Positions 38,567 to 49,564 of a DNA stretch of 64,000 nt are shown piece after piece. Within the stretch, counting starts at the first letter, position 1. Each line of letters begins with the position of its first letter. Location of the stretch: IMG/VR virus record IMGVR_UViG_3300050500_000527; one strand, written 5' to 3'. Source of the stretch: a virus (taxonomy: Duplodnaviria; Heunggongvirae; Uroviricota; Caudoviricetes). Both the position numbers and the translations under genes were made by a program. A model generated the notes under the pieces. The model was not told the origin of the DNA. It saw nothing but the letters and a program-made list of their open reading frames with translations, and ran no database searches.

Positions 38567-39490
38567 TCAGCGAAGCATCGTCGGGCTGGAGAGCAACCCT
38601 GGGCCCTGGCCAAGCGTCGGCCGGTTGGCCAGCAGGGCTTGCAAGCGGCTCATGTCAACTTGCGGACGCTGCATTGCAGGGGTTTGCGGCACCTGGGCAC
38701 CCGCGAGCGGGTTTGCGGGGTCCGGCTGGCCGGAGCTGTTCATCATCTTGCCGAAGTCGAAGCCGCCTTCGCCGAAGAGCGAGGAGAGCAAGCCGCCGCT
38801 ACCAGAAAGAGCCGAGCCCAGGGAGCCTACACCCGCGCCGCCCGCCGCGGCGCCTGCACCGGATTCGAAGAGGGAGGCGAGGAAAGGGAGCACGGCTTGT
38901 TCCTTCTGGGCTGGGGCGGGCTGGGCCGCCGCGGGAGGGGTTGTGGGGGAAGCCGCGGTAGGCGCCATCGAAGCGACCACGTCCGCGGTGTTAAATGGGT
39001 CGCTCGGCGTAGCCGCGCGCGGGGTCTTCGCGACTTCGGTGCCGGGCTCGGCGATGCGCTTACCCGCCCAGTTGATTACGTCGGCGCCAGTCCAATTAGC
39101 CAGGAATGGGTTCGCCTTAATGGCTGCGGGACTAAGCAGCTCACGTGCCGGTTTTTCTGGATTCGCCAGGAGCGCCGCGGCGCCTTGCGGTCCGGCGAAG
39201 TGGGAGAGCGAAATATTCTCGTCGCTCGGCGCGTAGCCGCGGCCAGCTAGGTAGCGGCCGTTTTCCTCGCCATAGCGCTTGGTCATCTCTTCGTTGAGCG
39301 CTGGGTCGGACCGTAGCGCGAGCACCTCGGCCTGGCTGCGCCCCTGCATCAGGTCTGGACGATAACGGGCAATCATGTTTAGCCAAGTTGAGCTAATGAA
39401 CTGCCCAGGGCCGTAGGCCGAGGAATTCGGGTTGCGTGCGTGGCGACGGCCATCGCTCTCAGCATTGATTATGCGCTGTTCAATCGCCAT
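38567..39490 (-). CDS. lytic transglycosylase (SLT-domain) virion-associated peptidoglycan hydrolase, 307 aa
   Basis: INAESDGRRHARNPNSSAYGPGQFISSTW fits the SLT catalytic E-S ... AxGxxQ(F/M) ... T/W pattern; glycine/alanine-rich C-terminal tail. Confidence 0.55.
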   Translation of the reverse strand: MAIEQRIINAESDGRRHARNPNSSAYGPGQFISSTWLNMIARYRPDLMQGRSQAEVLALRSDPALNEEMTKRYGEENGRYLAGRGYAPSDENISLSHFAGPQGAAALLANPEKPARELLSPAAIKANPFLANWTGADVINWAGKRIAEPGTEVAKTPRAATPSDPFNTADVVASMAPTAASPTTPPAAAQPAPAQKEQAVLPFLASLFESGAGAAAGGAGVGSLGSALSGSGGLLSSLFGEGGFDFGKMMNSSGQPDPANPLAGAQVPQTPAMQRPQVDMSRLQALLANRPTLGQGPGLLSSPTMLR

Positions 39491-39547
39491 TTTTAGAGGA
39501 ACCCCTGCCGAGGTTGTAGCGCCCTAGTGCTAAAGTGCAGTATTGTG

Positions 39548-39553
39548 TATAAT
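39548..39553 (+). promoter_or_regulatory. consensus -10 hexamer TATAAT (preceded by TGTG) for the small plus-strand gene
   Basis: Perfect TATAAT, 35 nt upstream of ATG 39589; weak -35. Confidence 0.35.
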
Positions 39554-39588
39554 GTGTTGAAAATCACGGGTAAAATGGAGTAGAGCGT

Positions 39589-39789
39589 ATGGCGTTTACT
39601 TTCACTGAACAGGTAAAACAAATTCTTCGTGCCTCGGGCTTCACCGAAGCTGAAATTCGCACTCAGGAAGTGCGCACCGCCCAGGGCATGAACCAGAGTA
39701 AACGCCCTGACGGAGCGGAACCGGGCATTGAATTGCCCGAGCGCTTTACTGGCAAGCCAGAAGACCTCCCTAAAGTTTTTCAAAATTAA
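39589..39789 (+). CDS. small protein (66 aa) encoded antisense to the structural operon, low-GC codon usage
   Basis: GGAG ribosome-binding site 9 nt before ATG; own TATAAT box; locally AT-rich (about 48 percent GC); 3-prime end overlaps the stop of the giant gene convergently. Confidence 0.45.
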   Translation: MAFTFTEQVKQILRASGFTEAEIRTQEVRTAQGMNQSKRPDGAEPGIELPERFTGKPEDLPKVFQN

Positions 39790-42700
39790 TCTCCTCAAGC
39801 TCCTGCAACCAAATATCGGTGCGCGGGTCACCATATGTGTCTGCGCCGCTATCGTCGATATGCGTGATTAAGAAGTGGCGTTCCGTCGGGAAGAGCACTT
39901 CTTTTTCAGACTGATGCGAGGAGAGTTCCTCGATATTCCGTCCGGTTAGGGACTGGATATGCAACTTTACCTTACCGCTGAAGCTGTTCGTCTTGTCGTA
40001 ACTGGTCGACCAGAACGCGGGCGTGACGATTATCCGGCCAGGCTTCCACTTCGCGAGCTCCTCCGCGTCGAGATCTTGGCCGCGATAAACCTCGCCGGTG
40101 AAGGGCGGTAACTTCTCTAGGGCACTTTCCAGCAGCTCCGCGTAGCTCAACCAACGCAGGCGTTCCGTGCCCAGAGCGAGCGGGTCGGAACGACCGGCCT
40201 TCTTGTCCTGGCGCAACTCACGGTTAATGTCGTCGGAGTGGTCGCCCGTATAGGCGTAGATCGCGGCAAACTCTTCCGCACTAAGGCCGTGCCGCTCAGC
40301 GGCGTCATTTCTGTAGTTTTCATCGAAGTCGTAAACAGATTGCAGCGCCTTTTTACGTCGTTCTTGGGACGAACTTAGCTTTTGGAAAAAGCGATGGAAC
40401 TTGTTGGCGAGGTTGTGTTTACGCTGCAAGGCGTAATCTAGAAAAGCGTCGCGGTTTTTCGGGCGGCCCTTAAAGCGCGCTTCGGCATAAGGCCGGATCA
40501 TGCCCAGGTAGGCTTCGTCCGTGAGCCCGTTCTGCAACGTGTTGATCGCCTCATAGGCCGGTTCGAAGAGCTTATTGTCGACTTCGGCGCGACCTTCTTC
40601 GACTGCCTGTTTCAGGCCGTAGAACCGGACGTTGAGCTGGCTCTTCTTCCGCTCAAGTTCGCTTATCTCCTTTGCGGAAAGCATGCCCGCTTCCGGATAA
40701 AGATTACGGACCTGTTGGAAAAACGCTGGAAATTCGGAGCGGGGCTTTGACCGCACATGGTCAAGAATAAAGTCCCAAAGGCTATTGTCTGGCCGAATTT
40801 CTGGTAGGCGGCCCGCATTCAGTGCGTCGTCATAGCGTGCGGTGAGCGCATAACGGACCGCGCTTTCCGCGCTACGCATCGCATTGTAAACGGGCGTTTC
40901 GTACTCTGCTTTCAGTGCCGGGATTTGTAAATCCTCGGCCTTCACCTTATTGGGGTCAGCGTTTTCTAACAGGTCGGCTTGCTCAGCCGTAATCGCGCGA
41001 CCTTCTTCGTTGCCGAGCTGCTCTCCGGCGCGGCGTAACACGTCCGCCATAAAGCCATTCACCGCTTCATAAGTCGAAGCAGCGAGCTCGTTCTTCTCCT
41101 TGTTGTAGCCGTAGTCTCGCCAGTTCTCTAGAGTCTGCGGCGCGATTAGTGCAACGATTTTTCCATCCGGGAAGGTGACATGGTCGTAGCCCTGAGTGCG
41201 TAAGAACGCGGCGTTCGCCTCCCCTGCCGGGCCGCCAGTTTGAGCAAGGTAGCTATCGGTAGAAGGATAGAAGCCAAATTTCTCTTGTGCCTCCTCGGCG
41301 CTAATACCATTCTGCGGTGTAAAAGTTGTCCGCTGCAGGTCGGGCGGAAAGGATCTGTTCGCCCAGAGCATGGTTTGCTCTGGATCTTTCGAGATCAGGA
41401 AGGAACGCTCACCTTTCCCGCTAACCCGCGTCCACCAGTCATTCGGTTTCAGCGTCAGGGCTTCTTTAATGTCCCCTAGGAACCGCTGCTCGTATTTATC
41501 GAAAACTTCTTTGAGTGCAGATCTCACTTCCTTGATCGAGGGGTGGTCCCGGTCAGTTAGATCGGTAATGCGATTCCTCGTCGCCTGTTCGACTTCGTTT
41601 TTTGCTTCCCGCTGAGCGTTCAGGTTCTCAGTAACACTTTCAAGCTCTTCTTGGACGCGCTTAAATTCTGCCTCGTCTTCCGTGAGCTGTGCACCCCCCT
41701 GGGCAGTGATCTTTTTAACCACCCCATCGAGCTTCCCCTGGGTTAGGGCACGCCAGAGCTTATTGTAAATCGGCTCTTCTTCGCCGTACACCTCGTTGGG
41801 GTGGTAATCGGTATCCAGGCGGTCTTTGCCGATATATTTAAACGCCTGGCCTTTATCGATGCCGACCAGGCCCTTATCCGTAATCAGGAACTGGTTCGAG
41901 TGGCCGTCATGGTTGGAAATCAGCCAGTCCACCACGTGTTCACGCATGAGCGCAGTGATTTCTTGCGGCGTAAGCTCGCTCATCTTCGTGCCGCGCAGCG
42001 TCCCGCTATTGGGCAGCATCTCCTGCATGACGCCCAGGCGGCCGTTGAGGCTTTGCACCCAGATACGCGGTGCGTTCGGGTTTATGAGCCGCGAGATATG
42101 GCCACCAGCCGCTTCGCCATGCGCTGAGAAGGGGCGGTCCGGCAGGTTCGGCTTGAACATATACTCATTGCCTTCTTCGTCCTGCCAGATCTCCTTCGGC
42201 TTGGACCCGCCGCCCGCATTCCCGACGAAGGTGTAATTGCGGTCCGGCGCCGGGATTAGGTCATCGAAACTGAGCCCCGCGGGCACGCTAACGGCGGGCG
42301 CCGCCGTGGTATCCGGCGCTGTATCAATCGTTCCAGCGAAGTCGCGCATTGCGCGGGCGGTGGCCGCGTAACCTTCTTTCTCGTTAGCCGCTGCATTGTG
42401 GAGTAGATTGTCGATAACAGCCTGCTTAAAGGCCTGGGTTTTTACGACATCTGTGTAGGGGCCTTGGTCTTTGAAGACTTCGTTGTAGACAAATTGAATG
42501 CTGTCCCGGATGATCTTTTTAAGAGAGGAATTCAGCTGAGATTTATTCAGTGCCTCGGTGAGGGATTTGTGGGTCTTGGGGCTCGACGGAGCGAGCTCTT
42601 CGCCGGTTAGCGCATTCTTGGCAATTGCTTCGTTAACTTGCTTCTGCTGGACAGCAGTATTCTCGTTCGCCTGCTTCTTCAGCGTATTCGCGCCTTCGAA

Positions 42701-45700
42701 GAGCCCGTTCATCAATTTGATGAGGCTCTCCTTCACGGCCGGTTCCGTCGCATTAATCGCAGCGACGCCCAGCTGGGTCGCAACGCCATCCATTTTGATA
42801 TGCTCAATGGCGTAAGGCGTCTTTATTGAATTTACGGCGTCTTCGAACGCTTTTGCGATCAGCGGGCCTTGACTTTTGGCGGCGGCTTCCGCTTGGGTGA
42901 GCGAAGCGAAGCCATTCTGTCCCGGAGCAGCAGCCGGTGCTTTCGCCGAGACCATCTTCGTAACGGCGTCGATGAGCTTTTGCTGCGCTGCTTCTTCCGC
43001 CGCGCTCTTCGGCGCCGGTTCGATCGGCGTCCCACCCTCAATTTGGTGCAACGGCGTCCCGCCCAGCAGGTCCACCCCCTGGGCAATTGCCATCAACAAT
43101 TTATTGACTTCCGGCGCATTGGTCGCGCCTTGCATGCCCTTTGTGTATTGGAAGATTTTCTCGTAGAACGCCTGCTTAAATTCTGGTGTATCTGCTAGGC
43201 CTGACCACCCGACCTGGGGGTATTGCTTTTTAAAAGCGGCATGAACTTCTTTTAAAAGGCCCTTCGCCTGGTCAATCGCATTAATCGCGTCGGGGCCGCT
43301 ATATTTCTTAATTGCGTCCATCGCGGCGAAGACTGAGCCGGGCGTGCCGGTCTTCTTCGGCTGGGGCTCTGGCTCAGCGCTAGACTTAGAGCCCCATTTG
43401 CCCAGCAGGGCGGCGTCGGGCGCCGCGCCGCGGCCGGGCGCACTGATCGGCTCGGAGAACGCGCCGTTGTCAATCGCGTCCAGAATATCCCTAATTGGAG
43501 CAATCTGTTGCTCAGTCAGGCCCCCATGGCTATATAATTCGAGCATGTGGGCAACGGCTTCTTGATCCATTGCCTCGTCATAGTCCGGGCGGTCCTTATT
43601 GTACTCAGCGTAGAGTTCACGGATGGTCGGCGCGGACTCATAGTTTTCCGCGTAGGGGTCGCGCGTTTTGCGGGCGAAGTCCGCATAGCCCAGGCCCAGG
43701 ATGTTGAGGTCCGTCGCATGGCCAAGAAGCCGATTCCAGGCGCTAAGGGGCAAGTGCCCCTCTCGGCGGAGGGCATGAAGCAACTCATGCCGCAATACGC
43801 CCCGAAGTCGATCGCTGCCACTCTGAGCCGGATCAACCGGAAGAAGGAAAAGGCCGCTGGGGTTCCCGAAGCCGGGCGGCATGTAAAAGGCCCGAACGTC
43901 AGTTAGGTCTTCCCACACGCCTTCCATGGCGACTTCCTCGCCATTGGTGGTTTGGAAGAAAGCATGGATTAGTGGCTTACCGGCTTCGTCGAAGCCCGCG
44001 GGCTCGACGCGCGTCAATACGTTGCCCGGGATGGAGTTCGGTAGCGCGTCGCCCAGGGCGGCGAACGCCTCAAGGTGCGCATCGACGATGGCTTGCGGCA
44101 TCAGCACCGCGCGGCCCGCATTGAGCAGCTTTTTCGCCGTATCCGTAATCTGGTCGGCGTCCAACTCCGCGGAGAGCTCTACCGGCCGGGTTAGCGGGTT
44201 GCCAGGCTCAGTCGGCTTGCCGCTCGCCTTGAATGGCTTCTCTGGGAGTTCCTTCTTGGCCTCCTTCTTCGGGCTTTTCGCCAACATCTGCTGAAGGTTT
44301 TCCACCTCCAGTGCTTCCGGAGGTAGCCGTTGCAGGCCGCGGTTGTACAGGTCGGCCAGCGTGCCTAGGCGTTCCTGCTCCTGCGCCACGTATTCCGGCC
44401 CGCGGTCAATAACGGCCCGCGCTGTATAAGTGGCCTTATTAGCCTTGCCCGCGCGGGCAAGGTCCACGCCCGCATTTAGCTCATTCAACTGGCGCTGGTA
44501 GCTATTCCGGGTGCGCAGGATCTGCTTCGGGCTTAGATACATGCCATTCCAAGGTTGCCACCACTTTGCCACCGCGGGGTGGGAGCGGCTCAACATGGCA
44601 TAACCGTCCGGCAGTAAAATGCCCGAAGGCTCCAGCCGCTCACCTATTGCATTCTGGGCGGCCCGCATTAGCGCCATAGCGGCGCCGGAGTTCTGATATT
44701 TCGGGTTAACCTCGATTAGGGCTACGTTCCAACGACCGTCCGGCGCTTTTTCCAGCTCGATGCTACCCATCGCTGGGCCGAGTTGCTTGGCGGGTTGCTT
44801 AACCGCGGAGAGCTCCAGGTTTCCGGGGTTGCCGTGCACGACGAAATAGCGGCTATCTTCCGAGCCGCCCTTCGGCCGCCGCGGGTCAACCTGTTCCCGC
44901 ACCACGAGGTTGCCGAACTTAGTCAGCTTCGAGGGCTGCCATTGGGCTGCCTTCTTCAACTCCTCGGGGCTTTGCTTGAACCGGGCGAGTGCTTCCTTCG
45001 CGCCTTTGACCTTCGAGGCGTAGTAGTCCTGCCACAACTTACCTTGTTGCGGCGCCGTGGGATCCGCTTTAGCATTGGCCAGGCGCTCTTCAAAGTAGCC
45101 GAGCATCTCGGTGAGCTGCGGCTCGGTGTAGCGGCCGTAATCGAAGCGGGTGCGGCGGGGTTGAAGGGCTGCGTCGGCCTCCGGAGAAGCCTCAGGAGCT
45201 GCGCTCGGCCCTTCCGGCGCACCTACGGCGCCCGGCACTTCTTCGGTCGCCCTCGGCCCCTCCAGGGCCTTAAGCGGTGCGCCGAGTTCGCGCGTCGGCT
45301 CAACGACCGTGTAGCCTTCGCCGGGGACGAGGTCGATAAAGCTGAGCGGTTCACCGGGCGCACCCGAATAGGGCTGCCCGCTATACGGCGCTTCTACCTC
45401 GGGCGTAATTTCCGGGATGCGCGGTTCGGCCTTACCGCCGCCGAGCACCGCCCCCGCCCCGCCGCCCAAGATGGCGCCGAGCGCCGCGGACTCCGCGACG
45501 CCTTCCGTCGTTGCGCGGCTTGGGTCCGTGGTTTGCTGCGTGATAATGTTCTGACCGAGCTGGGAGCCGCCTTCTTGGAGCCCTTCCTCCAACGCGCCTT
45601 CCGCCGCTGCGGCCGCGCGGCCGAATAAGCCGCCGCCCGGCACGGAGCGGGTTAGCGTCTTCGCGATCGGAATAGCCTCGGTGAGGCCCAGGCCCGCATA

Positions 45701-47107
45701 GCCGAAGGTTTTCAGGATGCGGTCGAGCTCATCCACCTGGGCCGTATCGCCCGCGGCGCGCGCCTTATCCTGCGCGGCCTTAATTTCCCGCGTGGCTTCT
45801 TCGAAGCCTTGCGAGCCGGTCGCGCTGCCGCCCATCGCCGCAACCACGGCCGCCGCGGCTTTCGGCCCGGCCTTGAGCAGCGCGGTCACGGCGCCGCCGC
45901 CGTAGAAGGCCCCGAGCTGACCCACCCCCTGGGCGAGCTGCATGGAGAAATCGTTCTGGCGGGCTACGTCGCCGGGGAACATTCTGTTCACTTCCAGCTT
46001 CGTATCCTGAGCCCATTTTAGCAGCGCGTTATCGTCGACCTTCTCGTCGCCCAGGTAGCCCGCTACAATGCCCGCGAATTCCGGGATGCCCAGTACGGCG
46101 CCGCTAAAGCCTTGCACCACGTTCTCGGTGCCCGCCCGCAGGCCGGTTTTGGTTGGGAGCGGCGCGCGGCCTGCTTTCATCTCGTTGAGTGCGTTAAGGT
46201 CCGGTAGCGTGGCGCGCGTGGTATTGAGTTGCGACTGGTAGGCGCGCGTAGCGTAAGGCGAAGGCGACGCCTTAATCAGCGCCTCGAGGTTGGCAATGCG
46301 TTTCTGGCCGTTCTCGTAATCCTTGTATTGTTGATCCAGCCAGGCCTGCTGATCGGCCGGGCTCATCATACCGAAGCTCTCACCTAGCGTGCCCCGATAT
46401 GGCTTCGGCGCTTTCTCCCGCGCAGCCCAGTCGCGGGCATCCTGATCAAAATAGGAATGTAGCTTACCGTAGCGGTCTTCAGCTTCTTGCAGCGAGGAGT
46501 AAGAGGGGAATTTATCCCAGCCGACTGCCCCCACATTGCGGAAAATTCGCGCGCGTTGGGCGTCGTCGTTCATATCGTAAATTTTACCACCCCAGACAGT
46601 CGGGATGGTGTAGTAGCGGCCGTCTGCCTCTACCGTTGTTTGTAAAAGTGTGGAGCGCGATCCGTCCGGATTTGTGACGCCACCCGGTCCATAAAGGTTG
46701 GTGAGGTGGCGCTTGTAGAAGTCCTGTTCCTGCGGATTAAGTTTTAGCGCCGCATTGGCCGCGTCAAACTGTGATGGAGGCGCAAATTTGCGCGTGGGCT
46801 CCTTCACGTCCGCGGCGAACGCCTTAAAGGGGCTGTACTCGGCCTGCGGGGCCGGAGAAAAGGGAGCCCGTGGGCTTAGAACGGGCTCTGAGTCTAGCGT
46901 CGGCCAGGAGTTCGACGCTTCTCGCTTAGGCTCAGGTGCTAAAGGCGGAGCGAGGGCAGCGGGTTCGAGCTCCGTCCGCCAAGGATTCGTCGCTGGTGAG
47001 GGAGCGATTGGCTCAATCGTCGGCGCCCATCCGCCCGGCGTTGCCGCTGCGGGTGTCACTGTATTAAACAGGGCCGGATTAAAGAGCAGCTCATCCCAAT
47101 AACCCAT
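39770..47107 (-). CDS. giant multidomain virion (ejection/internal) protein, 2445 aa, with HipA/PI3-4K-like kinase motif, HExxH motif and C-terminal R-S-E ADP-ribosyltransferase domain
   Basis: Uninterrupted 7.3-kb ORF in the internal-virion-protein position of a T7-like layout.
- Kinase-like region (about 41800-42260): GGGSKP, YMFKP, DWLISNHDGHSNQFLI, GIDKGQAF.
- HExxH region (about 43700-43900): LRHELLHALRREGH.
- ADP-ribosyltransferase region (39773-40330): AIYAYTGDHSDDINRELR, VYRG, FWSTSYD, QSEKEV.
- N-terminal third is alanine/glycine/proline-rich low complexity. Confidence 0.7.
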   Translation of the reverse strand: MGYWDELLFNPALFNTVTPAAATPGGWAPTIEPIAPSPATNPWRTELEPAALAPPLAPEPKREASNSWPTLDSEPVLSPRAPFSPAPQAEYSPFKAFAADVKEPTRKFAPPSQFDAANAALKLNPQEQDFYKRHLTNLYGPGGVTNPDGSRSTLLQTTVEADGRYYTIPTVWGGKIYDMNDDAQRARIFRNVGAVGWDKFPSYSSLQEAEDRYGKLHSYFDQDARDWAAREKAPKPYRGTLGESFGMMSPADQQAWLDQQYKDYENGQKRIANLEALIKASPSPYATRAYQSQLNTTRATLPDLNALNEMKAGRAPLPTKTGLRAGTENVVQGFSGAVLGIPEFAGIVAGYLGDEKVDDNALLKWAQDTKLEVNRMFPGDVARQNDFSMQLAQGVGQLGAFYGGGAVTALLKAGPKAAAAVVAAMGGSATGSQGFEEATREIKAAQDKARAAGDTAQVDELDRILKTFGYAGLGLTEAIPIAKTLTRSVPGGGLFGRAAAAAEGALEEGLQEGGSQLGQNIITQQTTDPSRATTEGVAESAALGAILGGGAGAVLGGGKAEPRIPEITPEVEAPYSGQPYSGAPGEPLSFIDLVPGEGYTVVEPTRELGAPLKALEGPRATEEVPGAVGAPEGPSAAPEASPEADAALQPRRTRFDYGRYTEPQLTEMLGYFEERLANAKADPTAPQQGKLWQDYYASKVKGAKEALARFKQSPEELKKAAQWQPSKLTKFGNLVVREQVDPRRPKGGSEDSRYFVVHGNPGNLELSAVKQPAKQLGPAMGSIELEKAPDGRWNVALIEVNPKYQNSGAAMALMRAAQNAIGERLEPSGILLPDGYAMLSRSHPAVAKWWQPWNGMYLSPKQILRTRNSYQRQLNELNAGVDLARAGKANKATYTARAVIDRGPEYVAQEQERLGTLADLYNRGLQRLPPEALEVENLQQMLAKSPKKEAKKELPEKPFKASGKPTEPGNPLTRPVELSAELDADQITDTAKKLLNAGRAVLMPQAIVDAHLEAFAALGDALPNSIPGNVLTRVEPAGFDEAGKPLIHAFFQTTNGEEVAMEGVWEDLTDVRAFYMPPGFGNPSGLFLLPVDPAQSGSDRLRGVLRHELLHALRREGHLPLSAWNRLLGHATDLNILGLGYADFARKTRDPYAENYESAPTIRELYAEYNKDRPDYDEAMDQEAVAHMLELYSHGGLTEQQIAPIRDILDAIDNGAFSEPISAPGRGAAPDAALLGKWGSKSSAEPEPQPKKTGTPGSVFAAMDAIKKYSGPDAINAIDQAKGLLKEVHAAFKKQYPQVGWSGLADTPEFKQAFYEKIFQYTKGMQGATNAPEVNKLLMAIAQGVDLLGGTPLHQIEGGTPIEPAPKSAAEEAAQQKLIDAVTKMVSAKAPAAAPGQNGFASLTQAEAAAKSQGPLIAKAFEDAVNSIKTPYAIEHIKMDGVATQLGVAAINATEPAVKESLIKLMNGLFEGANTLKKQANENTAVQQKQVNEAIAKNALTGEELAPSSPKTHKSLTEALNKSQLNSSLKKIIRDSIQFVYNEVFKDQGPYTDVVKTQAFKQAVIDNLLHNAAANEKEGYAATARAMRDFAGTIDTAPDTTAAPAVSVPAGLSFDDLIPAPDRNYTFVGNAGGGSKPKEIWQDEEGNEYMFKPNLPDRPFSAHGEAAGGHISRLINPNAPRIWVQSLNGRLGVMQEMLPNSGTLRGTKMSELTPQEITALMREHVVDWLISNHDGHSNQFLITDKGLVGIDKGQAFKYIGKDRLDTDYHPNEVYGEEEPIYNKLWRALTQGKLDGVVKKITAQGGAQLTEDEAEFKRVQEELESVTENLNAQREAKNEVEQATRNRITDLTDRDHPSIKEVRSALKEVFDKYEQRFLGDIKEALTLKPNDWWTRVSGKGERSFLISKDPEQTMLWANRSFPPDLQRTTFTPQNGISAEEAQEKFGFYPSTDSYLAQTGGPAGEANAAFLRTQGYDHVTFPDGKIVALIAPQTLENWRDYGYNKEKNELAASTYEAVNGFMADVLRRAGEQLGNEEGRAITAEQADLLENADPNKVKAEDLQIPALKAEYETPVYNAMRSAESAVRYALTARYDDALNAGRLPEIRPDNSLWDFILDHVRSKPRSEFPAFFQQVRNLYPEAGMLSAKEISELERKKSQLNVRFYGLKQAVEEGRAEVDNKLFEPAYEAINTLQNGLTDEAYLGMIRPYAEARFKGRPKNRDAFLDYALQRKHNLANKFHRFFQKLSSSQERRKKALQSVYDFDENYRNDAAERHGLSAEEFAAIYAYTGDHSDDINRELRQDKKAGRSDPLALGTERLRWLSYAELLESALEKLPPFTGEVYRGQDLDAEELAKWKPGRIIVTPAFWSTSYDKTNSFSGKVKLHIQSLTGRNIEELSSHQSEKEVLFPTERHFLITHIDDSGADTYGDPRTDIWLQELEEINFEKL

Positions 47108-49564
47108 TTAGGCGCTCGCTCCCAGATTATTGGCGCGGATATAGTCGTCTAACCGCGCCATGACAGCCTCGCGCGGGGCGCCGCGAGCAATCGCGTCTTC
47201 CGCCATACGTTGCGCTTCCTGAAGGCCCTGGAGCCCGGCGCCGCGGCCGGGCGTAGCGGGCGCCGGAGCAGCTGGACCCGCGGCGGGAGGCTGCGCGGAG
47301 GGCATAGGGGCCGCCGCGGGCTGGCGAGCGGGGGAAGGCAAAGCGGGCTGCGGCGCGGCAGCGGGGACGCGGGCTGCGGGCGCTTGCGGCGCCGGGCGCG
47401 CGGGCGTCAGCCCCTGGGCACCCTGGCTCGCCACGCCCGTCCGCACCAGAATACGGTCGAAGTTCCGGAGTGCATCAAGCATCGGCGTGGAAGCAACCTG
47501 CCGTAAGGCAGTCTGCACCTGAGCCGGGTTGTTAGAGAGGAGCTGTTGGGCGATGCGGGTCGCTACGCGGCGGTTAATCGCCTTATTGCCCAGGAGCAAG
47601 GCTGTGGCCAGCAGGCCGCCTTCCTCGTCGCCTTGCGAATAGCCCAGGCCGCCGACCAGGCCGAGCTCGACCAATTGGCGGGCGGTGGTGCTATTCCCCA
47701 TCGCGCCGCGGACCAGGTCCATTACGCCTTCCACGCGCAGGAAGGTCTCCAACTGACGGGCGCGATTCGGGCCGAGGGCGATGGTTAGCCGCTCGCGCGC
47801 GTTGGGGGAGTTATTGATCGAATTAAGCAGCGAGCGACGGTCCGGATTATCCCGGACGCGGCTGATAAAGCGCGTCGCGAAGCCTTCCGCGAAGAGGTCG
47901 CGTTCTTGCTGCGTCATTGCGGCCAGCGCGCGGCGGGCGGCGCCACCTTCAAAGCGGCCCGCGACGAAATTCTCACCCGCCTCCAGGGCGTTCTGGGCCT
48001 GGAAATAGGTCTGCGCCGTACCGCGTGCCCGAGCGAAGTCCGGGACCATGCGGTCCAGCTCCGCGACCAAGGGGCGCCGCAGTGCATCAATATCCCGTGC
48101 GGCGGAAAGGGCGCCTTGCCGCTTCAGCGTACCAATCTGATCGTCCAGATTACGCTTAACCGCGTCCCAGAATTCCAGCGTATAGCCATTCGGCCCGCGG
48201 GTGCCCGTCGTCCGGCCGCCCGCCGCCGCGGCGCGGTTGCGCACGGTATTGGCGGCCTGGGCCATCGCCGATTCCATGGCGGGGGCGCCACTGAGTTTGG
48301 TCAGGATAGGGCTCATCAGCCCGTTACGGCCTTGGCTGTAGGCCGCATCATAAAGCGGTCGACGTGCATTGCGGGCCGCGATTTCCAACGCCTCACGCGT
48401 CGCGGGCGCATTCGGCCCGCCGACTTGACCGGGACGGTTAACCAGGTCACGGATAAAGCTCTCGGCGCGGGTGCTCTGGCCTTCCAGCCGCTCGTCAATC
48501 AAATTACCGATCAGAGAGCGCGCTTCGGGGGACTGGTTCGCGGCAGACCGCGCCAGAGCACGCGTCGCCTCACCGCCCGCGTCGATTACGCGGAGGTCTT
48601 GGCCTGCCCGGCCTGCGGCGCGGGCTTCTTGCGGGGTTAGCGGCTGGCCGCGCGGGAAGGCCCGGTCGGCGCCCACAGCGGAAGCAATATCGCGGCTAGC
48701 CTGAGCGTCCGGCGCCAGAGCCGAACGCACGCGGTTAATCGGATAGCGGGCCGCAGCGCCCAGAACAGAGGCACCTCCGCGGAGGATGGGCTCCACGACA
48801 CCCGGCAGTGCAGCGCCGAGGCCCGCGGAGACGGCCGCCTTAACCGGATCAATGCCTTCTTGCGAGCCCACGCCCGCGGCCAGGGCGTCCTGTGCGACAG
48901 AAGCTGCACCCATACCGCCCGCGCCGAGCGCCGTTCGGGCCGCAATGGACGTGCCCGCGCCTGCGGGGCCGAGGAAGGGCAGCGTCGCAATGGTCTGTAA
49001 GCCGAAGTCGCCTACGTCCTGGGCCGAGAACCCCGGCTTGTTCAGGTAAGCGAAGTCCGTCATGCCCGGCGCTTTGAGTAGGAGGTTGCCCTTAGCATCC
49101 TTCTTCTCTTCAAGCCCAGGGATGCGGGCTTTTAGAATATTGACTTTGCCGGTTTCAGTCGGCGCGATCGCGGCCAGGCTCAGCGTGGTTCGGATATTGT
49201 CCAGGCCCGCTTGGTCCTTACCGCCCGTGTCATTCCGATAAGCGTCGCCGAATTCCGGCCGCTCGGCATAAGCGGGGTCCAGCCGCTCTTCGCCGGTATA
49301 GGCTTTGCGCAGCCCTTCAGCGGTGCGCTGAAGGAAATTCGGCTTGGGACCCGCGGCAGGAGGCTGCGCGGAGGGCATAGGCGCCGCAGGAGCGGGCGTA
49401 ACAGGCTTAGCCTCATTTAGCCAAGGCTTCGCTGCGGGCGCCGAGGACGGTGCAGGGGGAACGGCGTCCGGCGTAAAGGGATTCGGGACGAGACCCTCGT
49501 CCTCATCCTCCGCCACGGGCGCAGGACCGACCGGAATTGCTTGATTCAGCCAAGGCTTCGCCAT
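47108..49564 (-). CDS. internal virion protein (818 aa) with internal direct repeats
   Basis: Adjacent to the giant gene; alanine/glycine/proline-rich. Motif AKPWLN(Q/E)A twice at the N-terminus and APMPSAQPPAAGP at both ends, encoded by a 23-bp direct repeat at 47287 and 49355. Confidence 0.45.
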   Translation of the reverse strand: MAKPWLNQAIPVGPAPVAEDEDEGLVPNPFTPDAVPPAPSSAPAAKPWLNEAKPVTPAPAAPMPSAQPPAAGPKPNFLQRTAEGLRKAYTGEERLDPAYAERPEFGDAYRNDTGGKDQAGLDNIRTTLSLAAIAPTETGKVNILKARIPGLEEKKDAKGNLLLKAPGMTDFAYLNKPGFSAQDVGDFGLQTIATLPFLGPAGAGTSIAARTALGAGGMGAASVAQDALAAGVGSQEGIDPVKAAVSAGLGAALPGVVEPILRGGASVLGAAARYPINRVRSALAPDAQASRDIASAVGADRAFPRGQPLTPQEARAAGRAGQDLRVIDAGGEATRALARSAANQSPEARSLIGNLIDERLEGQSTRAESFIRDLVNRPGQVGGPNAPATREALEIAARNARRPLYDAAYSQGRNGLMSPILTKLSGAPAMESAMAQAANTVRNRAAAAGGRTTGTRGPNGYTLEFWDAVKRNLDDQIGTLKRQGALSAARDIDALRRPLVAELDRMVPDFARARGTAQTYFQAQNALEAGENFVAGRFEGGAARRALAAMTQQERDLFAEGFATRFISRVRDNPDRRSLLNSINNSPNARERLTIALGPNRARQLETFLRVEGVMDLVRGAMGNSTTARQLVELGLVGGLGYSQGDEEGGLLATALLLGNKAINRRVATRIAQQLLSNNPAQVQTALRQVASTPMLDALRNFDRILVRTGVASQGAQGLTPARPAPQAPAARVPAAAPQPALPSPARQPAAAPMPSAQPPAAGPAAPAPATPGRGAGLQGLQEAQRMAEDAIARGAPREAVMARLDDYIRANNLGASA

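Follow-up and report, generated by a model that had tools for sequence, protein, structure and literature searches.

A giant, probably polyvalent, podovirus protein joins an ADP-ribosyltransferase to kinase-like, GNAT-like and HExxH modules

A giant gene in a podovirus structural module

The Caudoviricetes sequence IMGVR_UViG_3300050500_000527 (64,000 nucleotides, called the window here; 60% G+C), from an uncultured short-tailed phage of about 100 kb, carries a giant gene at 39770..47107 on its minus strand. This gene probably encodes a phage polyvalent protein, packaged in a podovirus capsid and co-delivered with the DNA as a multi-enzyme cargo. It forms one uninterrupted reading frame from ATG to stop (2445 amino acids (aa) plus the stop codon), whereas the plus-strand frame over the same interval contains many stops. 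A single open reading frame (ORF) of this length and position had been claimed by a first-pass annotation made from the sequence alone, which left the strand unstated. The identical 2445-aa protein, designated P0001, occurs on six contigs from independent sources, the longest of about 100.6 kb, and syntenic orthologues of 2708-3070 aa are found in other contigs of about 100 kb. The ORF is therefore a real gene and no assembly artefact. Megablast comparison of 20 kb around the gene with 50,697 phage records gave no near-identical DNA, an Rfam scan of the window found no family, and a promoter and terminator scan around the 3' end of the giant gene stayed at background level.

The first-pass annotation had read the protein as a fusion of a HipA/phosphatidylinositol 3/4-kinase (PI3/4K)-like module, an HExxH metallopeptidase motif, a GNAT-like segment and a C-terminal ADP-ribosyltransferase (ART). 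Every motif that it quoted lies at the predicted residues: the GNAT-like motif at aa 795-819, HELLH at aa 1107-1111, the kinase-like motifs GGGSKP (aa 1632-1637), YMFKP (aa 1649-1653), DWLISNHDGHSNQFLI (catalytic loop, aa 1727-1742) and IDKGQAF (aa 1750-1756), and the ART motifs AIYAYTGDHSDDINRELR (helix, aa 2282-2299), VYRG (aa 2340-2343), FWSTSYD (aa 2365-2371) and QSEKEV (aa 2399-2404). These motifs exceed chance, because the ART triad, the kinase residues and the HExxH set are conserved among orthologues and relatives. The domain reading as a whole is supported as essentially correct, to degrees that differ between the modules.

The C-terminal ADP-ribosyltransferase

The C-terminal domain (aa 2264-2425; 39833..40318, minus strand) is firmly supported as an ART of the R-S-ExE type by Pfam and PDB profiles, fold and conservation, with R2342, S2367-T-S2369 and E2401-K-E2403 as its predicted catalytic triad. 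It scores well above the gathering cutoffs of two Pfam models, ART (PF01129; 1.8e-12, 47.5 bits, cutoff 22.3) and ADPrib_exo_Tox (PF03496; 8.7e-12, 45.2 bits, cutoff 23.4). Among solved relatives found by sequence, Tre1 is the best (6.5e-9), followed by Vis, VsdC and XopAI. Alignment with Tre1 places YRG, STS and E-x-E in register, the ExE of Tre1 being EAE. R2342, S2367-T-S2369 and E2401-x-E2403 are kept in five of five full-length orthologues, which are 37-43% identical in the C-terminal part.

Structural modeling agrees with this assignment. An AlphaFold2 model of aa 1590-2445 has a mean pLDDT of 78.7, with block values mostly of about 80-94 over aa 2314-2445, and contains the split beta-sheet fold of ARTs. 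Foldseek retrieves XopAI (2e-9) and Tre1 (TMt 0.81), together with Vis, HopU1, C3 and ExoS, and the model superposes on Tre1, XopAI, Vis and C3.

The nearest ARTs are Tre1, XopAI, Vis and HopU1 rather than T4 Alt. The NCBIfam model for XopAI gives a score of 54, far under its cutoff of 300. Likeness to the Alt type, which the first-pass annotation had included in its catalytic signature, is marginal: the T4 Alt-like phrog_802 reaches only E = 0.03, and the capsid-fused ART families phrog_595 and phrog_21789 match far better (1e-13 to 1e-15). Arginine-specific mono-ARTs, among them the C2, iota, VIP2 and Tre1 enzymes, are marked by an ExE ARTT loop.

A kinase-like module split by an insertion

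Upstream of the ART lies a HipA/PI3/4K-like core (aa 1612-1800; 41708..42274, minus strand), recognized from conservation, profiles and modeling by its P-loop-like GGGSKPK and by K1652, E1665, D1734, Q1739 and D1751. On its own, this segment of the giant protein matches neither HipA_C nor PI3_PI4_kinase at E <= 1, and the evidence comes from its family. An exhaustive profile search, in which clusters were defined at 50% identity, recovered 2047 cluster representatives at E <= 0.001, of which 577 reached E <= 1e-30. Of the best 150 matches, almost every one lies within a protein of 1000-7700 aa, and tandem copies (2-4) of the domain occur in about 40%; examples within the series P0014-P0157 are P0065 (7742 aa), P0056 (6354 aa) and P0074 (4862 aa, four copies). 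When 34 diverse members were compared with Pfam, HipA_C matched 24 (best 1.7e-8) and PI3_PI4_kinase matched seven (best 4.8e-6), the other matches being Fam20C, ABC1 or LepB_N. One member, P0015, passes the HipA_C cutoff (32.6 bits against 30.5).

An alignment of the 34 sequences shows K1652, D1727, W1728, D1734 and D1751 to be invariant and Q1739 near-invariant, which supplies the catalytic set expected of such kinases (ATP-binding Lys, catalytic Asp, metal-binding Asn/Gln and Asp). The model places the Gly-rich loop between beta1 and beta2, K1652 on beta3, E1665 on alphaC, D1727 and W1728 at the end of alphaE, D1734 in the catalytic loop and D1751 in a DxG motif after beta7. The modeled order (beta1, Gly-loop, beta2, beta3 with Lys, alphaC with Glu, beta4-5, alphaE, catalytic loop, beta6-7, DxG) fits the canonical protein-kinase-like one. 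Searches of PDB profiles with trimmed alignments gave sub-threshold matches that were nevertheless congruent in their motifs (Fam20C 0.039, HipA 0.92), whereas the untrimmed alignment had yielded nothing beyond coiled-coil noise caused by the helical tail. With hhalign, residues 291-342 of Escherichia coli HipA align at E = 8e-5 (probability 61%), placing HipA D309 and D332 on D1734 and D1751.

These results support the HipA/PI3/4K-like label of the first-pass annotation at the superfamily level, through the family-wide HipA_C and PI3_PI4_kinase matches, the catalytic set and the modeled topology, while the giant protein itself stays under the profile thresholds. It is nevertheless no HipA toxin, since the HipA N-domain and a HipB partner are both missing: HipA_N, couple_hipA and a HipB-like neighbor were all sought at the giant gene and none was found. 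No dedicated Pfam or NCBIfam model matched the domain, and literature searches found no description of a HipA-like kinase in MuF or virion proteins.

Downstream of the core is a helical extension of about 70 aa (aa 2188-2257, DEAYLGMIRPYAE...QRKHNL; 40337..40546, minus strand), whose pattern DEAYL..PYAE..QRKxNL follows the kinase core in 148 of 154 family proteins. The gap between core and helix has a median of 4 aa over 206 domains but measures 388 aa in the giant protein and its close clade, so that the module is split by a clade-specific insertion of about 390 aa. The insertion (aa 1801-2187; 40547..41707, minus strand) comprises a coiled coil and an alpha/beta subdomain. Together with the linker at aa 1241-1612, it is 24-46% conserved among three orthologues (24-30% for the insertion), and the comparison of these two regions gave no functional leads.

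The association of this module with ARTs and capsid proteins extends beyond the present phage. Thirty of the 154 best kinase-family proteins contain an ADPrib_exo_Tox-type ART, which is C-terminal in 27, and Phage_Mu_F is fused to the kinase-like domain in 14 of 40 sampled proteins. Just before its kinase-like domain, the small family member P0012 has a C-terminal intein splice motif (aa 1-40, ..LLVHNC; Intein_splicing 1.2e-4), suggesting either that some carriers of the domain contain inteins or that P0012 is a fragment.

HExxH and GNAT-like modules

The HExxH module (aa 984-1215; 43463..44158, minus strand) contains H1107, E1108 and H1111, with E1183 on a later helix, and is defined by conservation and modeling. 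HExxHALR, H1130, E1183, H1187, E1190 and H1194 are invariant in seven sequences of 33-61% identity. An AlphaFold2 model covering the region (mean pLDDT 78.4, blocks mostly 80-96 there) shows N-terminal helices, a beta-sheet, the HExxH helix at aa 1099-1115 and a later helix at aa 1176-1193 bearing E1183, the zincin layout described for the metallopeptidases (MPTases) of polyvalent proteins (PMC5512222). None of the seven members matched Pfam at E <= 10, no PDB profile matched the region, Foldseek of the model against PDB returned no zincin among the best 50, and a homolog search with the alignment scored nothing. The zincin proposed by the first-pass annotation is thus backed by an invariant HELLH motif and a fitting helix layout, though by neither a peptidase profile nor Foldseek; a zincin-like peptidase is likely but not established.

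The GNAT-like acetyltransferase module (aa 750-865; 44513..44860, minus strand) is moderately supported, as the first-pass annotation had suggested, by its fold and by the Pfam matches of its relatives. Its own match to Acetyltransf_1 is below the cutoff (E = 0.018, 15.7 bits against 20.7), and the same model matches three of four relatives (best 2e-5). In the model, which shows a GNAT core fold with an acetyl-CoA loop, the loop Q805-x-x-G-x-A810 (QxxGxA at 805-810) lies at the N-terminus of a helix.

The giant protein might instead be mainly a structural internal-core or length-determining protein in which the enzyme-like segments are inactive relics. Its long Ala-rich helical linkers, the kinase, GNAT and HExxH segments that fall under Pfam thresholds, and the degenerate GNAT loop of the orthologue P0003 (RKTDAF) are compatible with such a role. 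However, the catalytic residues of the ART, kinase-like and HExxH modules are invariant across orthologues of only 30-50% identity, which would be unexpected for relics and makes this explanation very improbable.

A conserved N-terminal region and exchangeable cassettes

The N-terminal part of the protein begins with a Pro-rich leader (aa 1-110), followed by a conserved domain at aa 110-247 (46367..46780, minus strand) that shares 44-48% identity with parts of P0008 and P0009, two further giant proteins. A tblastn search of phages with aa 105-250 gave one weak match, in Roseobacter phage CRP-738. Further along, a Gly/Ala-rich, moderately hydrophobic module (aa 330-564; 45416..46120, minus strand) is a candidate incorporation or translocation module on the basis of PHROG matches, conservation and hydrophobicity. 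The wider N-terminal module (aa ~225-650), within which the Gly/Ala-rich hydrophobic stretches and peaks lie, is the best-conserved part of the family, with 53-65% identity to P0002-P0005 and P0007, and the C-terminal part is less conserved (37-43% identity, P0002-P0006). It matches phrog_10691 (1.5e-8) and phrog_2206, "virion RNA polymerase" (3.6e-8), an N4-type family; both comprise giant virion proteins.

Behind this conserved region, the syntenic orthologues exchange cassettes at fixed slots. The slot between the N-terminal module and HExxH is GNAT-like in the giant protein, P0003 and P0006, whereas P0005 has ART-PolyVal there (aa 555-724, 8.7e-23) in addition to its R-S-ExE ART. P0003 carries an extra NUDIX domain (aa 1330-1446) between its HExxH and kinase modules, which is lacking in other orthologues, and P0007 carries LPD23 (8.7e-44). 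Polyvalent and polymorphic effectors follow this same logic, in which a conserved carrier is joined to variable cargo.

Genomic context

On the strand of the giant gene, the order begins with the major capsid gene, a 137-aa ORF, an SU10-type adaptor, a 493-aa protein and ORFs of 104 and 155 aa. It continues with an S74-type fibre, a 522/533-aa protein, an 818-aa protein, the giant protein, a 307-aa transglycosylase-like protein, and proteins of 317, 253 and 580 aa. The 818-aa upstream neighbor (47108..49564, minus strand; phrog_5880, 1.8e-60) is a candidate internal or ejection protein, and the 307-aa downstream neighbor (38567..39490, minus strand) matches phrog_4067 (5e-20). The four divergent phages that were compared keep the order adaptor, nozzle, fibre, ~500-560 aa, ~750-820 aa and giant; the shortest locus, L011, reaches back no further than the end of its nozzle gene. 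The upstream gene (745-818 aa) ends where the giant ATG begins, at 47107/47108 in the window (locus L001), 9000/9001 in L006 and 6000/6001 in L011, and with a 1-nucleotide gap in L007 (8999/9001). This abutment suggests translational coupling.

Small podoviruses of Rhizobium, Paracoccus and Microcystis have portals about 40% identical to the one encoded here. Paracoccus phage KLEP18-1, the closest cultured relative, has homologs of two further proteins: its nozzle, gp16, corresponds to the 493-aa protein (4e-48), and its tail fibre, gp22, to the 317-aa protein (3e-21). The genes lying between these two are annotated in KLEP18-1 as "structural protein", along with a free-standing GNAT. Because it sits between nozzle and fibre homologs, the giant gene occupies the slot of internal-core or ejection proteins in a podovirus module, beside a lytic transglycosylase. 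The T7-like core-protein position proposed by the first-pass annotation is thus borne out by synteny and the nozzle-to-fibre slot, but not by sequence homology to gp14-16.

This arrangement bears on whether the protein leaves the producing cell inside virions at all. It could act as a late-expressed cytoplasmic polyprotein that stays unpackaged and modifies the producing cell, for example by blocking defence or timing lysis; packaging is deduced rather than observed, and in T4 the Alt paralogues ModA and ModB are ARTs that stay out of the virion (PMC5512222). Nevertheless, nozzle and fibre genes enclose the giant gene, whose ATG abuts the upstream stop, other phages join the same kinase-ART cargo to capsid-associated MuF or VG15, and the N-terminal module is common with giant virion-protein PHROGs. 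An unpackaged role is accordingly improbable.

Two further features were observed. KLEP18-1 gp18 (L008 11145-11534), annotated as "aminoglycoside acetyltransferase", has no BLAST similarity to the GNAT-like segment. Elsewhere in the window, on the strand opposite to the structural module, a tRNA-Ser(CGA) at 31332-31423 (plus strand) lies just 5' of a 422-aa Band_7 (SPFH) gene at 31460-32728 (plus strand).

A small convergent ORF and the toxin alternative

A conserved 66-aa ORF on the plus strand (39589..39789) converges on the giant gene, sharing 20 nucleotides with its 3' end. Comparison of four loci identifies equivalents in L006 (18140-18340), L007 (17250-17444) and L011 (14117-14311), each on the minus strand. 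These ORFs of 64-66 aa overlap the giant 3' end by 4-20 nucleotides, are 30-41% identical as proteins and have a common motif, VKxxL(R/K)A(S/A)G.T(E/D).(E/Q). As a profile, the small ORF gave no significant match in PDB. It is present in four of four ART-bearing loci and absent at the ART-less P0007 locus (L010), a single locus. It might encode an immunity factor or a regulator, from a sample too small to claim a link to the ART. A 113-aa ORF at 39493..39834 (minus strand), which also overlaps the end of the giant gene, is probably spurious and was not accepted as a gene, since it is called on no contig and runs antisense to the 66-aa ORF.

These observations raise the alternative that the giant protein is a MuF-like polymorphic toxin aimed at competing or superinfected bacteria, in which the ART kills and the small downstream ORF encodes the immunity protein. 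The ART is nearest to Tre1, an antibacterial toxin of the type VI secretion system (T6SS), the cargo is swapped among orthologues behind a conserved N-terminus, the small ORF directly follows the ART in all four ART-bearing loci and is missing at the ART-less one, and a small ORF usually follows MuF toxins (PMC5576092). However, the small ORF lies on the opposite strand, unlike typical immunity genes, and the comparison sets four loci against one whose contig stops 637 nucleotides past the gene. The giant protein has no MuF domain, and lysogeny genes were not seen in the flanks, which received no dedicated examination. A toxin of this kind is unlikely, although it would use the same delivery route as a takeover effector and the two are not fully exclusive.

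A separate and tentative possibility, of fairly low probability, concerns the kinase-like core and its helical extension, whose 150 best-scoring carriers are nearly all giant phage virion proteins or MuF-type proteins. Core and extension together may represent an uncharacterised family of kinase-fold enzymes delivered by virions, which might have non-canonical chemistry or act on the ART or together with it. On this view the convergent 64-66-aa ORF would specify an immunity factor or regulator dedicated to the ART cargo.

Proposed mode of action

A packaged polyvalent protein remains the favored explanation. The giant protein would be made late in infection, together with the structural proteins, as one polypeptide. 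It is probably stored inside the capsid with the podovirus internal-core or ejection proteins and would be delivered with the DNA into the next host cell; we infer packaging, ejection, enzymatic activity, targets and self-processing, the injection step from genomic context. The conserved N-terminal third (aa ~110-650) would serve as the incorporation or translocation module, and the remainder would be exchangeable enzyme cargo. Once delivered, the zincin-like domain may process the chain into individual effectors or act as a protease on host proteins, the GNAT-like and kinase-like modules would modify further host targets, and the C-terminal ART would mono-ADP-ribosylate arginines of host proteins using host NAD+, a reaction in which T4 Alt targets RNA polymerase and Tre1 targets FtsZ.

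Several points weigh against this proposal. The giant protein and the giant proteins of its close relatives are known from sequence and models only, and the AlphaFold2 models were built on shallow alignments of 8-10 sequences. The protein's own kinase, GNAT and HExxH segments fall under Pfam thresholds, and the Foldseek list for the C-terminal model was filled by ART matches, which left no place in it for kinase-fold ones. No homology of the giant protein to T7 gp14-16 was found and no internal or ejection-protein PHROG matched it, tblastn of the N-terminal module (aa 225-650) against cultured phages gave no match, and a BLAST comparison of KLEP18-1 gp19-21 with the 533-, 818- and 2445-aa proteins of the window showed no significant similarity. 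The three alternatives weighed above are nonetheless less likely than a packaged polyvalent protein because of the points against each.

Comparison with known systems

Polyvalent proteins are giant phage and plasmid polypeptides that combine disparate enzymes (Iyer et al. 2017, J Bacteriol; PMC5512222). ART, kinase, GNAT and zincin MPTase domains, the last related to the lethal-factor fold, are among their commonest components; their genes lie with virion genes, and co-injection with DNA is predicted for them (PMC5512222). The giant protein resembles this class in carrying disparate domains on one chain (ART, kinase-like, GNAT-like and HExxH), in sitting among late and virion genes and in the modular shuffling of its cargo. 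It therefore fits a published class (PMC5512222), whose signature domains its orthologues carry, and is a less unusual effector than the first-pass annotation had supposed. It belongs to the known polyvalent class and is not a new type of system.

Differences from the published description lie in the individual domains. Orthologues carry the polyvalent-specific ART-PolyVal (P0005) and LPD23 (P0007), unlike the giant protein, which has no match to the polyvalent-specific Pfam models (ART-PolyVal, LPD, MPTase-PolyVal). The ART that ends the giant protein is of the R-S-ExE type, a point on which it differs from the published description. Because fusions of Alt/VIP2 ARTs to MuF were already noted in a 2022 survey (PMC9503650), an R-S-ExE ART in a polyvalent chain is an extension rather than a surprise. 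In the polyvalent kinase clade, the C-lobe is truncated and the final strand of the N-lobe bears a conserved Gln; its reported members come mainly from (pro)phages of Verrucomicrobia-Chlamydia and Bacteroidetes (PMC5512222), whereas the family described here occurs in mycobacteriophages and the present podovirus and has sequence links to HipA and PI3/4K. The two may be the same clade, as judged from the published description only, given that Q1695 is invariant in alignments of the close family and that the kinase core spans only ~190 aa.

The MuF- and capsid-fused ART proteins (PMC5576092; McProf gp54, Aikoy gp15) end in the same ADPrib_exo_Tox-type ART on capsid-associated carriers. In mycobacteriophage McProf gp54, VG15 is followed by a kinase-like domain (477-651) and an ART (1007-1176), and in mycobacteriophage Aikoy gp15 a kinase-like domain (182-366) precedes an ART (1158-1332); both have the same kinase-like core and helical extension upstream of the ART. 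The giant protein differs in lacking MuF and VG15, in having another N-terminal carrier and in lying in a podovirus nozzle-to-fibre block. It is also two to three times longer, with GNAT-like and HExxH modules and the ~390-aa kinase insertion in addition.

By sequence and fold, the ART is best matched by Tre1 (a Serratia T6SS effector; PDB 6DRE/6DRH), XopAI, Vis and HopU1, with YRG, STS and ExE aligned, although identity is only ~23-25% in the fold alignments. Tre1-type ARTs are delivered by T6SS or the type III secretion system (T3SS), whereas delivery here would be by the phage virion, and unlike Tre1 the giant gene has no Tri1-like ADP-ribosylhydrolase immunity gene nearby. Alt of the myovirus T4 has ~680 aa and stands outside any multi-enzyme chain. 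It is the functional precedent for the ART despite marginal sequence similarity, being an R-S-E ART that is packaged in the head, injected with the DNA and active on host RNA polymerase (PMC5512222).

E. coli HipA (PDB 3TPD, 2WIU) aligns with the kinase-like core over the alphaE helix, the catalytic loop and the Mg-binding Asp segment. The P-loop-like motif GGxHxK resembles GAQxK of HipA. In contrast to HipA, the kinase-like domain (~260 aa) is embedded in a giant protein and has neither an N-domain nor HipB.

Podoviruses store giant or internal proteins in the capsid and co-eject them with DNA, as exemplified by the N4 virion RNA polymerase gp50, T7 gp14-16 and the P22 ejection proteins. The PHROG of the N4 virion RNA polymerase matches the N-terminal module, and the RNA polymerase module is absent from the giant protein. 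The T7 and P22 ejection proteins share an equivalent nozzle-fibre position with an adjoining transglycosylase, but no detectable homology.

Set beside these systems, the giant protein offers a well-resolved example of the multi-enzyme effectors that phages are thought to inject, placing an R-S-ExE ART inside a polyvalent architecture. Its syntenic orthologues demonstrate cassette swapping at fixed slots, with GNAT exchanged for ART-PolyVal and NUDIX present or absent, and its four candidate host-modifying activities have catalytic residues mapped for mutagenesis. The kinase-like family may prove more useful than the giant protein, as its members number in the thousands among large phage proteins and some of them belong to cultured mycobacteriophages.

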